A DNA stretch of 64,000 bases, taken from NCBI GenBank assembly GCA_964016885.1, contig OZ024746.1, positions 31,062,001 to 31,126,000 on the forward strand. Direction: 5' to 3'. Below are positions 4,001 through 58,851 of the stretch, piece by piece. The translations under genes were made by a program, and so were the position numbers. The notes below the pieces were generated by a model, which ran no database searches, was not told where the DNA came from, and saw only the letters and a program-made list of their open reading frames with translations. How positions within the stretch are numbered: the first letter of the stretch is position 1; every line of letters begins with the position of its first letter. This stretch comes from Eledone cirrhosa. Its lineage: Eukaryota.

Positions 4001-4156
4001 TAGAAGTAGTTCCACAACAGTTAATTCACCATTTCCGAGAACAATTTGTTTTACCTTAAATGGATCATCAGCTCGGTTTCCAAGCTGATGATCTGTCTTA
4101 GGTGAAAAAAATGTTTTCTTGGAAATGGTGAATTAACTGTTGTGGAACTACTTCTA
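4001..4156. repeat. Palindromic insert (about 75-bp arms) abutting (TA)n; Penelope-like end remnant
   Basis: tagaagtagttccacaacagttaattcaccatttcc (4001-) is the reverse complement of ggaaatggtgaattaactgttgtggaactacttcta (-4156). Confidence 0.9.
4077..4125 (+). ncRNA. Minimal type I hammerhead ribozyme motif
   Basis: tttccaag-CTGATGA-tctgtcttaggt-GAAA-aaaatgtt-TT-cttggaaa, with an 8-bp stem I (tttccaag/cttggaaa). Stem II is weak. Confidence 0.6.
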
Positions 4157-4182
4157 TATATATATATATCTGTATTTTGTAG

Positions 4183-4266
4183 GTGTATGTTATTGAGGTA
4201 ACAATAGGACCCTACACATGGTGTGTCAGACATCGATATAGTGACTTCCATGATCTACATGATAAG
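4183..4266 (+). CDS. NISCH: Nischarin exon (PX domain), first exon visible
   Basis: ag|[28 protein letters not shown]|gtaaga; matches the nischarin PX motif [12 protein letters not shown]. Confidence 0.95.
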
Positions 4267-4595
4267 GTAAGACATCTTTATATACTATTTTTATTACCTT
4301 TTCCTTCTTTCTTCTCATCCTGTTTTCCTGTGGTTGCTTTTTAACCCTTTATGAATTAATAAAATAAACTAGTGAGGCAATTTGGCAAAATTGTTCCATC
4401 TCAGATGGTGACTTGTAGTATTTGTTCCAGCTTTGTACCCTGATTTTAAATCCTGTTGTTTACATAGGTGCTAGACTTAATCCATCACCCAGTTTAACAC
4501 TACCACCTGATCCTTGAGTGCTAGACTTAATCCATCACCCAATTTAACACTACCCCTACTAAGCAACACTGTGTGTTTATCTCTCTCTATTTCAG

Positions 4596-4778
4596 CTTGT
4601 CTCTACCTTCAAGATAGACAAGAGTTTACTTCCACCAAAAAAACTGTTTGGGAACCAGTCTGAGACTTTCATAAAGAAACGCCAGAATGACTTGGAGGTT
4701 TACTTACAGACAATTCTCTTTTATTTGGCACAGAAAATACCTCCAGTCTTGGCATATTTCCTCGACTTCAACAAATAT
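4596..4778 (+). CDS. NISCH: Nischarin exon (PX domain)
   Basis: cag|LVSTFKIDKSLLPPKKLFGNQSETFIKKRQNDLEVYLQTILFYLAQKIPPVLAYFLDFNKY|gtaagt, phase 0/0. Confidence 0.95.
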
Positions 4779-5795
4779 GTAAGTAGTGAACTATGTGCAA
4801 CATACATGCACCAACATACATATTAAATATTTATACACAACACAGTATCATCATCATTTAACAGCTCTCTCTCTCTCTCTCTCTCTCTCTCTCTCTCTCT
4901 CTCTGTTGTGTTAACGGGTCATCACAAACCAAGTCAGTACTTAATCAGAGTTACTGACCTCTCAGATAGGCAGAGGAGTACATCTCACTTGCATATGTTT
5001 CCACACGCACTCCCTCTCTACAGAGTGCACTGACTGCATATTATTATGGCTACAGCACTAAGGAGGTTGTCATATTTTTGACACAGCTGAAAAATACATC
5101 TAGCCCTTTGTTGGCAAATCTATGGTTGGATGCTCTTTCTAACACCAACCACTTTATAGAGTGTACTGGGTATGTTTATCATGGCACCAACACTAGAACA
5201 TTTGTCATGTCCTTGATACAACTGAAGAGTCCTCTCAACCTTTTTTGGCATGGTTCTTCCTATCATCAAGTATGTATTAGAAAAATGGCAATGGTAGTGT
5301 GTGTCTGGTATAAACGCATCCAATATAATCCCTCATACATCAAAACTTTCATTACCATTGTTCTAATGACATGTACTGTATTTCAGTGCATTGCTTACTG
5401 GTTAAGGTGTTGTACTTAGGATCATAATGTAATGAGTTCAATACTTGGACCAAGTGGCATGTTGTCTTTTTGAACAAAACACATCATTTCAAATTGCTCC
5501 AGTCAACCCAGCTAAAAATGACTAAAAACATAAGAGATTGCCTTTGCACGTTTCACAGCTATTTGGGTAAATGTGAATACATTTTTGTTATTCTCTTCAT
5601 ACACAGAAACTCATAAGAGATTGTGTTTTACATGTTTCACAGCTTATTTGACTGTTCATTAGAATACAAATGTCTTTACTTTCTAACTACAAAGAGAGCC
5701 TATAATAAACAGCTATTTATATGAAACACAAACATTTTGTTTGTTGTTTAAATAGGACTAGAATGATGATCATACTAATGTTATTGTTATTGCAG

Positions 5796-5844
5796 GAGAT
5801 TCATGGTATTACGCAGGCATTAGCAGAAGATTTATATAACAGAG
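5796..5844 (+). CDS. NISCH: Nischarin exon
   Basis: cag|EIHGITQALAEDLYNRG|gtatgt, phase 0/1 (human EINGITAALAEELFEKG). Confidence 0.93.
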
Positions 5845-55517: not shown

Positions 55518-56655
55518 CTGGAATATATCAACAAAATACAGTTAATGACTCATTAGTTTCATTTAATTTATTCATTTTTTTTTCGGAATCATATTTCATC
55601 ATTGGTAGTATCGGTAGAGGGTCGGACGCCATGCTTTGCAGCAAAGAGTTACGGCCCTTTATGGTCTGAGTTCAAATCCCGCCGAGGTTAACTTTGCCTT
55701 TCATCCTTATGGGGATCGATAAAATAAAGTACCAGTAATACACTGGGATAATTGCTGGCCTTGTGCCAAAAGTAGAAACAATTATTATTAATCTCAGAAG
55801 GATGACAGGTAAAGTTAACCCTGGCAAGATTTTAACTTAGAATGTAAAGAGTTAGAACATAGCGGCAACAACAACAACAACAATGGTCTCTTTATTAGCC
55901 ACAGATAATAATAATAATAATTGTTTCTACTTTAGGCACAAAGCCACCAATTACCCAGTCCATTACTGGTACTTTATTTTATCGACCCCGTAAGGATGAA
56001 AGGCAAAGTTAACCTCGACGGGATTTGAACTCAGTTCGTAAAGGGGCGTAACTATGCTGGAAAGCATGGCGTCCGACCCTCTACCGATACTGCCAAATAA
56101 TAATAATGGTTTCTGATTTAAGCACAAGGCCAACAATTTCGGGAGGAGGGAAAGTCGATTTAATCGACCCCAGTACATTACTGGTACTTCTTTTCAGTCA
56201 TCCTTACCAGGGTTCATGAAATAAAATGGAAATTAAACGAAAAATAAAAAATATATATATAATAATCTATATTATAATAAGAGCGCTGTCTGTCTGTCCG
56301 TCCATCACACTCACTCTATATAGAGAGAGGGAGCACCAAGCAAGAGCTATGTACAGAGAGAGAGAGAGAGAGAGAGAGAGAGAGAGAGAGAGAGAGAGAG
56401 AGTAACGCTGTGTGTTTTCGAGGTGATAGAAAGAGGTAGATAGACAGAAAGTTATAACATTGCCCTCATCTATATAGAGAGAGGGTGAGCACCGAGTGAT
56501 ATGTACATAGATAGAGAGAGAAAAGGAACGTCATTTGTTTAGAGAAACTGTGTGTGTGTGTGTGTCAGAAAGAGAGAGAAGATGTTGCCCTCATCTAGTA
56601 ATGATAATAAATAACAATAATAAAATAATCCTTAATTTTCAGTCTGTTTTCTTAC

Positions 56656-56832
56656 CAGGTAGGCAGCCATGAGAACACCCATTCCAAAGCCAGCAACGAC
56701 ATCTGTCCAATAACTTCGGAACAATCCAATTTCTACTAATCCACAAAGTAGAGACATCATACAGAATATCATGGCCAAGAAGACTCGGACTAGTTTTAAG
56801 GTGTGGGTACCTACACCATAATGTATATAGAT
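56656..56832 (-). CDS. PLPPR-like exon (TM5, C3 motif, TM6)
   Basis: cag|IYIHYGVGTHTLKLVRVFLAMIFCMMSLLCGLVEIGLFRSYWTDVVAGFGMGVLMAAYL|gtaaga. Confidence 0.9.
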
Positions 56833-57317
56833 CTGAAATAGGAGATGGAAGTTAGAATATATTGATGTGAAGGGGTTGCGAAAACTGGGGCTAGTTTAAA
56901 GGTGTGTATACATATATATATATATATATATATATATATATATATATAGAAAGATTTGAATGGATACAGTTTAGTTGAAAGGAATTTATTGACACGTGTT
57001 TCTATAACAGTTACATAACCTAAAACAGCTATCTACAAACTTTTAGTTATGCAGACATTCAATATTTCAATGTTATTATTTACTGTCATTTCATCAGAAT
57101 AATATTACTGAGGACCTATTTAGTTTTTATAGAGAATATTAGGAGGGAGGGGTGAAGTTGTTAGAAGAATAGTTGAAGGAGTGGTTTTTCGATAGCAGTG
57201 AGAATTCTTGGGAACCGGAAACTGGAACCGTCGAGCAAACTCTACGTGAGCTGATAATCTACTGTGTGTAATATTTATATTACAACACAACGGAAAATAC
57301 TGTATATATATATATAT

Positions 57318-58534
57318 ATATTGTTATATTTGGGGAGGGTCATATTTGCGTAATATTGCCAGAATTAATAACAGAACACACTCACTGTTTGGTTGGTTTT
57401 CGCTTCTCGCTGTCTTTTATATATATATATCTGCGATCTAACTTACTCGGTCCTCAATGTTGCCATTGACTGACCGGCGGTCAAAAATAATACAGATACA
57501 ATATAGACAAACACATATATATATAGTTTACATAAATCTTTCGTTGCACATCTGCAACATCGTCAGTGGTGTTATATTCATTGTTCCTCCTGTTGTGTTG
57601 TATGTCTACGCCATTTTTTTTTTTTTGTTCAGTCTGTCTATATATTTATTTATTTATTTGCTTGTTTGTTTATCTTATTTTATTTGTCTTCTTTGCGCAT
57701 GCGTTTGCGTGTGTGTATAGTGTTATGTGTGATGTGTGACTAGTGTGTATAGTGTTGTGTCTGCTGGGTGACTAGTGTGTGTTTATGTGCTTGTTGTTAT
57801 TGTGCTTGTGTATGTATTTATTTATCTTATTTTATTTAATTTTATTTACTTATTTATACTTCTCTTAGGTCAGTGTTGTTTGTCTGGGTGTTGTTGTTGT
57901 TCCACTCATTCTTTCTGTTTAGCTTTGGTCTTCTAATTTCTATTTCACTGGCCTCTCTGATTTGCCTATCTGCTGGGTCATTCCTATGTTTAGATATTAT
58001 TCTAATTTCTATGTTGTCTATGTTACCGTCATGATGTTGTCTAGCATGTTCGTATAGTACTGACCCGTTTTTTCGTCCTTTTAGTTCCCCCCAGTGTTGG
58101 TCTATCCTTTCACCTATGCTACGAGCTGTCTCACCTATGTATGTTGTTGTCGTGTTTCTGCAAGTACCCTCTGTACATCTTATGCTATAGACTACGTTTC
58201 TAGTTTTACAGTTTATCCGGGGGTTCACCTTACATATGATACATTTCCTATTGGTACAGTGGGTTTTCTTAAAAGGGTAGGTTTTGCTGTCTATATTGTA
58301 TCTGTATTATTTTTGACCGCCGGTCAGTCAATGGCAACATTGAGGACCGAGTAAGTTAGATCGCAGATATATATATATAAAAGACAGCGAGAAGCGAAAA
58401 CCAACCAAACAGTGAGTGTGTTCTGTTATTAATTCTGGCAATATTACGCAAATATGACCCTCCCCAAATATAACAATATCTGTTTCGACACACGATTTCA
58501 TATAAAAAACCTCGCAAAACTAATTCATCGCCGC
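57318..58534 (-). mobile_element. 5'-truncated Penelope-like element: GIY-YIG endonuclease remnant between about 190-bp inverted pseudo-LTRs, inserted in (TA)n
   Basis: ORF 57854-58228 reads NCKTRNVVYSIRC..C....YIGETARSIGERIDQH...REASEI...PKLNR. Arms 57318-57509 and 58288-58479 are near-identical inverted copies. Confidence 0.92.
57531..57568 (-). ncRNA. Minimal hammerhead motif downstream of the GIY-YIG ORF
   Basis: ca-CTGACGA-t-gttgca gatg tgcaac-GAAA-gatt-TA-tg; 6-bp stem II, but stem I is only 2 bp. Confidence 0.6.
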
Positions 58535-58723
58535 TATATATATATATATATATATATATATATATATATATATATATATATATATATATATATATATACA
58601 TACATATATATATATACACATATATAAACACACATATACATATATATATATATATGTGTTATTCCGGGTTGAATCGGAGGTAACCACAGTAAGTAAGGTA
58701 CTCAATACATTGCAGAGTATAAA

Positions 58724-58851
58724 AGTTTTAATATAGATGAGATTCTACAGGACTAGAACTGTTTCATTCCTTAGAAATCATCAGAGATTCCTGATGATTT
58801 CTAAAGAATGAAACAGTTCTAGTCCTGTAGAATCTCATCTATATTAAAACT
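58724..58851. repeat. Near-perfect palindrome (61-bp arms) with back-to-back hammerhead cores, abutting (TA)n
   Basis: The loop agattc is flanked on each strand by CTGATGA-t ttc taaR gaa t-GAAA-cagttctagtcc. Confidence 0.9.

Follow-up and report, generated by a model that had tools for sequence, protein, structure and literature searches.

Eleven palindromic inserts beside TA repeats, several of them carrying outward-facing minimal hammerhead ribozymes, lie within 64,000 nt of Eledone cirrhosa DNA (contig OZ024746.1 of assembly GCA_964016885.1, positions 31,062,001 to 31,126,000, forward strand; this whole stretch is referred to as the window, and positions are counted from its first letter). 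We conclude that they very probably arose as separate insertions, 5'-truncated and head to head, produced by several families of (TA)n-targeting Penelope-like elements (PLEs) that bear an endonuclease, with no new kind of element involved. A GIY-YIG remnant, the hammerheads, the tails, and TA adjacency uphold the PLE origin, TA targeting, minimal hammerheads, and multiple families that had been proposed in a first-pass annotation of this DNA. The features of endonuclease-positive PLEs found here are a GIY-YIG domain with relatives that bear reverse transcriptase (RT), a 3' hammerhead, and an inverted truncated copy with a tail at one end. As a kind, the inserts are ordinary PLE debris, and their plan is already described in the legend to Fig. 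2 of PMC8557442.

Palindromic inserts in TA microsatellites

Aligning one half of each annotated site to the reverse complement of the other half verified inverted repeats at all eleven sites, with arm identities in local alignment ranging from 74% (insert 42518) to 99.5% (insert 51000) over 27 to 202 aligned columns. Self-BLAST finds eight of the inserts; 38629, 42518, and 51000 emerge from direct alignment of the arms. The inserts are as follows, with the name used for each in parentheses and the strand given for the one to which it was assigned.

Insert 1 (4001), 3937..4156: tail 3937-4000 and inverted repeat 4001-4156, (TA)n on both sides; nischarin intron
Insert 2 (36117), 36060..36213: AT-rich inverted repeat 36117-36213, short, and a probable tail whose left limit is approximate; lacks a hammerhead and is the weakest member
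Insert 3 (38629), 38562..38750: tail and inverted repeat 38629-38750; hammerhead remnant on the minus-strand arm
Insert 4 (42307), 42226..42448: tail and inverted repeat 42302-42448; a decayed relative of 58724
Insert 5 (42518), 42467..42640: tail and degenerate inverted repeat 42518-42640; only a hammerhead remnant
Insert 6 (46325), 46280..46719: tail and inverted repeat 46325-46719; related in terminus and tail to insert 57318, which bears GIY-YIG
Insert 7 (51000), 50956..51388: AC-rich tail with a small stem-loop and inverted repeat 51000-51388, 192 of 193 columns identical
Insert 8 (54911), 54911..55071: 27-nt arms whose spacer has a plus-strand hammerhead remnant; lies in an intron of a PAP2-family gene
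Insert 9 (55199), 55117..55290: tail and 33-nt arms at 55198-55290, spacer with remnants of stem II and GAAA; also intronic in the PAP2-family gene
Insert 10 (57318), 57318..58534, minus strand, mirror orientation: (TA)n, 192-nt arm, 3' untranslated region (UTR) and hammerhead, truncated GIY-YIG open reading frame (ORF), inverted arm, tail 58480-58534, (TA)n; the two 192-nt arms are 100% identical
Insert 11 (58724), 58656..58851: tail and near-perfect inverted repeat 58724-58851

In 10 of the 11 inserts, a (TA)≥3 run is found no more than 12 nt from one outer end of the palindrome (16 nt in 42518), compared with 12.8% of 18,411 random placements; the palindromes were rightly described as lying beside TA. 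A second TA run follows 44 to 81 nt past the opposite end in nine inserts; the expectation for both conditions together is 4%. The usual unit inside a TA microsatellite is thus TA, tail, arm, arm, TA, the tail being an unrepeated 44- to 81-nt segment outside one arm in nine inserts. The common plan that had been claimed for the inserts holds, with three departures from it: 57318 is mirror oriented (TA on the left, tail on the right), 36117 has no second TA run within 400 nt, and in 54911 the second run is 206 nt away. No tandem arrays were found at the 11 insert sites, where the copies lie head to head.

A search from both flanks of all 81 TA blocks recovered nine of the inserts and one further candidate, a possible twelfth insert.

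39288..39970: candidate insert in mirror orientation, with degenerate arms and TA on both sides

A palindrome at 39374-39573 and other repeat pieces are nested within this candidate; the inverted repeats at 39374-39573 and 40322-40467 were grouped with neither the inserts nor the dispersed repeats. Inverted repeats at 8356/8816, 19006/19457, 20861, 35303/37222, 53903/55601, and 59146 look like dispersed repeats lying in opposed copies and were not counted among the inserts. A generic inverted-repeat search was dominated by the TA array at 48.5 to 53 kb, where a TA/CA mosaic microsatellite of about 4.4 kb (48554-52980) is interrupted by insert 51000.

The arms had been described as largely unrelated. 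Several families are indeed present, but two pairs of inserts are related, 42307 with 58724 (z = 15) and 46325 with 57318 (z = 13.6), and the members of each pair differ in junction and length. The tails also align within both pairs and are therefore element sequence and not flank. Most arms diverge by 4 to 26% with an ordinary transition bias; their mismatches comprise 18 A/G and 20 C/T differences, and thus show no A/G excess and no sign of edited templates.

Hammerheads and a GIY-YIG remnant

Of nine exact matches to the core CTGANGA-N7-20-GAAA in the window, six fall within inserts, distributed over 4 of the 11. In 1,000 dinucleotide shuffles of the inserts, the mean number of inserts with an exact core was 0.09 and never reached four, an enrichment over the shuffled control as anticipated. 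Recognisable cores, some mutated, are present in the same six inserts that had been named (4001, 42307, 46325, 51000, 57318, and 58724); 38629, 42518, 54911, and 55199 carry mere remnants, and 36117 none.

4076..4126, plus strand: hammerhead with an exact core and a weak stem II (insert 1)
Near 42364-42370, minus strand: mutated hammerhead core (insert 4)
46454..46496, minus strand: minimal hammerhead with G12 replaced by A (insert 6)
51124..51162, minus strand: minimal hammerhead with an intact core, a palindromic 4-nt loop III, and U-U closing stem II (insert 7)
51226..51264, plus strand: identical copy of 51124..51162 on the other arm (insert 7)
57530..57568, minus strand: minimal hammerhead of the consensus type, with a bulged U and a 6-bp stem II closed by G-C (insert 10, in the spacer between the arms)
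58784..58836, plus strand: complete type I hammerhead with a 7-bp stem I, 3-bp stems II and III, a GUA site, and U-U closing stem II (insert 11)

We also applied a minimal descriptor (stems I and II and a UH site) at three settings of stringency. The core, both stems, and the UH site of a minimal type I hammerhead were found without mismatch at four places in the 2,973 insert bases: on both arms of 51000, on the right arm of 58724, and in the spacer of 57318. The left arm of 46325 matched with its G12 changed, and 4001, whose second copy on the minus-strand arm also has A in place of G12, matched only at the loosest setting. In the other 61 kb the three settings gave 1, 0, and 5 matches. An earlier descriptor that required a long stem III detected only 58791 and one match outside the inserts. 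Rfam at E ≤ 5 returned, among the 150 of 255 matches listed, only microRNA models and no hammerhead family; nearly all of these matches fall on TA mosaics, and all are below the gathering score.

The cores had been said to point towards the flanking (TA)n. Every match does read outward from its insert, but the best core of 42307, like that of 46325, belongs to the tail arm and faces the tail rather than directly the TA run. The G10.1-C11.1 pair is present in 57318 and 46325, whereas in 4001, 42307, 51000, 54911, and 58724 (at 4085, 42370, 51231, 54990, and 58791) U-U replaces it at a stem II of 2 to 3 bp. Such a closure appears to depart from the published consensus: it is in none of 44 alignment rows inspected in PMC4209133, whose descriptor favours paired ends, and it was not found in the literature searched. 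The hammerhead of 57318, which is probably of the dimer-dependent type, is the only one outside paired arms; it is in sense orientation to the PAP2-family gene, in an intron of which it sits.

The spacer of 57318-58479 contains a 150-codon open frame on the minus strand, in which only the last ~145 codons of the element ORF remain.

57854..58297, minus strand: 5'-truncated ORF end with a Cx4CxxC linker and a GIY-YIG endonuclease with CCHH residues, followed by a stop (insert 10)

An exhaustive search gave 1,474 relatives of this fragment at E ≤ 0.001. Its nearest longer relatives are 42% identical to it, and in one of them an RT active-site motif stands upstream. Alignment of the fragment with ten relatives shows that the Cys linker and the GIY-YIG and CCHH residues are conserved, C16 and C21 being invariant and C24 nearly so. 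The GIY-YIG domain of 57318 aligns with the C termini of the four longest (681 to 1047 aa), in which we take the motifs N-terminal to GIY-YIG to be those of RT. In the window, RT itself has been truncated away.

Past the GIY-YIG ORF, the order is stop, 3' UTR, consensus-type minimal hammerhead, and TA-abutting arm. Judged by its sequence, 57318 is a canonical C-terminal-endonuclease PLE of the Neptune/Nematis type. It is not Naiad or Chlamys, because its endonuclease ends the ORF and the hammerhead comes after it, whereas those clades have an N-terminal endonuclease and lack the canonical hammerhead. Insert 46325 shares the last ~25 nt and the tail with 57318.

Mode of insertion and the tail motif

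Two-strand priming would account for this plan. A protein with RT and GIY-YIG domains would cut both strands of a TA run; such double-strand cutting, together with extension of both strands, has been demonstrated in vitro on AT-rich DNA with the protein of an anole PLE (Frangieh et al. 2024; PMC11167929). Both cut ends would prime reverse transcription on element RNA, one copy beginning at a proximal start and the other at a distal start. In the anole PLE, two RNA start sites bracket the tail, and hammerhead cleavage is not required (PMC11167929). The copy from the distal start would include the 44- to 81-nt tail and the other would omit it, which is our tentative assignment of starts to arms. 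Both copies would stop early, often ~0 to 36 nt upstream of the hammerhead core, perhaps through a short template or a strong stop, and would be joined at their 5' ends to give TA, tail, arm, arm, TA. The arms would then diverge with age, and the hammerheads would be passengers from the element end. The 5' ends do lie ~0 to 36 nt upstream of the core or within it in 4001, 42307, 46325, 51000, and 58724, a hint of a short template. The spacer has the direction of the tail-less copy in 57318 and, by their remnants, in 54911 and 55199. That the tails are one-sided, and that the longer copy is the one without a tail, supports two RT starts per insertion from the genomic side.

Several points weigh against this explanation. 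The PLE ORF is tied by sequence to only 2 of the 11 inserts (57318 and 46325); hammerhead, tail, and plan are the grounds for assigning the other nine to PLEs, with nothing but the plan in the case of 36117. The GIY-YIG fragment of the window has no Pfam match, and one homologue matched only below threshold. The tails, at 44 to 81 nt, are longer than the 30 to 40 nt of published PLEs. Neither a full-length parent nor an empty site was seen in the 64-kb window. Finally, 10 of the 11 inserts share one orientation regardless of host gene strand (P = 0.012; 10 of 12, P = 0.039), for which the model gives no account.

Among the alternatives, a PLE origin in which the inversion arose by self-priming or template switching (including the use of an antisense template) instead of two-strand priming is conceivable but doubtful. 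Self-priming was proposed for the palindromic junctions of Adineta PLEs, where inverted pseudo-long terminal repeats with a tail were described (Arkhipova et al. 2013; PMC3846280), and the young arms in the window are almost identical, as a fold-back copy would be. However, the longer copy in 57318 has no tail, and back-copying or plain fold-back of that cDNA cannot yield one; a second start on the RNA is required, by template switching or by a second primer, and these two routes are indistinguishable here.

We consider it improbable that each short palindrome is a non-autonomous derivative of a PLE whose entire hairpin is transcribed and copied as one unit. Most inserts are 90 to 400 nt long and ORF-less, as had been claimed for the population (57318, with its GIY-YIG ORF, does not conform), both 5' ends lie near the hammerhead in 4001, 42307, 46325, 51000, and 58724, and putatively non-autonomous PLEs are described in PMC8557442 and in a preprint (bioRxiv 10.64898/2026.07.22.740005). 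Against copying as a unit, the related inserts 42307/58724 and 46325/57318 are unlike in junction and length, and the tail is on one arm only, which the insertion reaction itself predicts. Because related inserts differ at their junctions, albeit in two pairs only, the inserts fit separate short head-to-head products better than hairpins that spread as units, and the earlier description of them as hairpin elements goes too far. A milder form, in which short single-arm RNAs are copied twice, is compatible with separate insertions.

The palindromic form and TA context would also suit TA-targeting miniature inverted-repeat transposable elements (MITEs) or the terminal inverted repeats of DNA transposons; insert 36117 could fit, and MITEs and Tc1-Mariner are active in Octopus vulgaris (PMC13282606, Table 1). 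We nevertheless regard this origin, which had been flagged for checking, as very unlikely. TA abuts one arm end only, while the other end continues into a tail that is conserved between relatives, and an element-derived tail at one end is incompatible with terminal inverted repeats flanked on both sides by target duplications. The outward hammerheads in the arms and the PLE-type GIY-YIG domain in one insert point the same way, and for the six hammerhead-bearing inserts the idea is contradicted. Assembly fold-back artefacts or chance in AT-rich DNA, which the nearly perfect 51000 and 57318 might suggest, can scarcely be credited given the 4 to 26% divergence of most arms with its ordinary transition bias, the family relations, the tails, the shuffle controls, and the recurrence of the plan at two metagenome loci.

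Four of the tails share the word GTATTRAGTAC, 15 to 21 nt past the arm end.

42275..42285, minus strand: GTATTRAGTAC, tail of insert 4
42492..42502, minus strand: GTATTRAGTAC, tail of insert 5
55167..55177, minus strand: GTATTRAGTAC, tail of insert 9
58698..58708, minus strand: GTATTRAGTAC, tail of insert 11

The window contains no further exact match to the word (0.19 expected in all); with one mismatch allowed, 4 were found against 5.1 expected, which is not above chance. The tails have no common fold, and among five that were folded only that of 51000 was significant. The word was not found in the available supplementary text of PMC8557442 or PMC11167929, and among 30 of the 33 papers that a literature search by its letters gave, none has a title on transposons.

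Metagenome contigs scanned for a hammerhead core followed by GTATTRAGTAC gave at least 117 loci, and most of these motif matches are due to chance. When the stems were tested strictly, six loci passed, of which four are convincing; inspection recognised real minimal hammerheads at 11 loci, representing 8 distinct sequences in about 6 families. PLE protein matches were found at none of the 117 loci retrieved. Since the loci were selected by the tail motif and the collection offers no total of hammerheads to set them against, these figures do not formally exclude chance. The motif-bearing loci look like animal repeat DNA. One (L011) repeats the plan seen in the window, a head-to-head pair with the motif past one arm only; L045 resembles it, except that a degenerate motif accompanies its second arm as well. 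In six further hammerhead copies at metagenome loci, not selected by the motif, the exact motif is absent from all six and a similar word stands at the same place in four. Hammerhead-bearing metagenome palindromes built on the plan of the window are at L008:920-1249, L011:2370-2653, L028:4183-4460, and L045:1111-1355; two palindromes read by eye are without flanking TA runs. A conserved tail motif, if real, would offer a handle on how PLE RT chooses its start.

Host genes, predicted hairpin RNA, and known systems

The window has a G+C content of 34.5% and abundant dinucleotide repeats. Its left gene is nischarin, with 93% identity to the Octopus bimaculoides protein over the region searched, and it forms a convergent pair with a PAP2-family gene, whose exon chain is our own reading of the sequence.

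4183 to 27525: nischarin exons
Near 61400-61208, 61030, and 56832-56656, minus strand: exons of the PAP2-family gene, with a probable last exon at 53250-53060

The inserts had been placed in introns and putative UTRs. An intronic position applies to 5 of the 11, 4001 in nischarin and 54911, 55199, 57318, and 58724 in the PAP2-family gene; the remaining six, the candidates for a UTR position, sit between the stop codons of the two convergent genes. The first nischarin exon found starts at 4183, 26 nt past the end of insert 4001. The palindrome is next to the splice acceptor of this exon (both within 4001-4182), and its hairpin could influence branch-point use. A Thr/Ser-rich repetitive open frame lies inside nischarin at 13823-14635 and, except at its start, has no match in the O. 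bimaculoides isoform used for comparison. Fragments at 36840-37823, 35300-35900, 61785-62297, and 436-1225 resemble the 3' ends of what we take to be RTE-type long interspersed nuclear elements; the Pfam match on 36840-37823 is PHD, and some of these fragments form opposed pairs (35303/37222). By eye, a tRNA-like head of a short interspersed nuclear element is at 42755-42880, directly past the TA run behind insert 42518.

The predicted fold of the whole 58724 insert has an energy of -95 kcal/mol (z = -21), while that of a single hammerhead arm is -12 kcal/mol. In host RNA that reads through an insert, folding of the long hairpin is predicted to prevail over that of the ribozyme, making double-stranded RNA (dsRNA), rather than cleavage, the likely product. 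An ungapped version of the 50-mer measure of Porath et al. (PMC5625713) was applied to the 63,951 50-mers of the window. Near-perfect inverted partners were found for 804 50-mers in the inserts; dinucleotide repeats account for another 671 such 50-mers and the rest of the window for 83. The inserts thus hold 804 of the 887 near-perfect hairpin 50-mers outside microsatellites, a share that comes from one window chosen for these inserts and does not carry over to the genome.

In O. bimaculoides, an exceptionally high genome-wide fraction of loci (4.4e-3) can form near-perfect dsRNA; in the available text of PMC5625713, the source of such dsRNA is named for the frog alone, and heavy Penelope editing is reported in a lizard. 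Because of the predicted folding and the octopod lineage, it is plausible that the inserts could serve as ADAR substrates, and they are a testable candidate source of octopus near-perfect dsRNA. More speculatively, and with considerably more doubt than confidence, the tail motif may be a cis signal for RT binding or start choice across the PLEs of distant animals, with two-strand priming by these families being the main non-microsatellite source of near-perfect genomic hairpins in octopus. If true, this reading would account for the unusually high dsRNA potential and the hyper-editing of octopus.

No paper describing this insertion plan in cephalopods was found in a search that left most of the subscription literature outside its range. 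In O. vulgaris, PLEs are recently active, with 31 families, and the available text of PMC13282606 that reports this contains neither "hammerhead" nor "palindrom".

Among the closest known systems is the endonuclease-positive PLE. Truncated copies with an adjacent inverted copy and a 30- to 40-bp tail at one end were described by Craig et al. (2021; PMC8557442), where (TA)n bias is tied to the Cys linker. The inserts share with these elements the 5'-truncated inverted copies, the one-end tail, the (TA)n bias, and the palindromic junctions (PMC8557442 and PMC3846280), but here there are mostly two very short copies, and 11 units in 64 kb. Neptune/Nematis PLEs are matched in their Cx4CxxC linker (of the CX2-5CxxC class), C-terminal CCHH-type GIY-YIG domain, 3' hammerhead, and TA targets; this likeness applies directly to 57318 and by its shared terminus to 46325, and the clade is not fixed by a tree. 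Metazoan PLE minimal hammerheads are mostly in truncated copies, show weak and dimer-dependent cleavage, and in some cases form opposite-strand pairs separated by 100 to 700 bp (Cervera and de la Pena 2014; PMC4209133). They share with the inserts the CUGANGA and GAAA core, a short stem I, a stem III that is minimal or absent, and a palindromic loop, and the hammerhead of 57318 fits their published consensus. The anole Poseidon element resembles the inserts in AT-rich two-strand cutting, tail-bracketing starts, and an AC-rich stem-loop (compare the tail of 51000), but it belongs to a different clade, and inverted products were not reconstituted in that study (PMC11167929). Non-LTR retrozymes are likewise non-coding and PLE-related with a type I hammerhead (bioRxiv 10.64898/2026.07.22.740005), but form head-to-tail tandem arrays in contrast to the head-to-head pairs found here. 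The palindromic Harbinger repeats of Xenopus are also single insertions that self-fold into tight dsRNA (Porath et al. 2017; PMC5625713), but these derive from a DNA transposon and their editing was shown, whereas the inserts of the window are putative editing targets.

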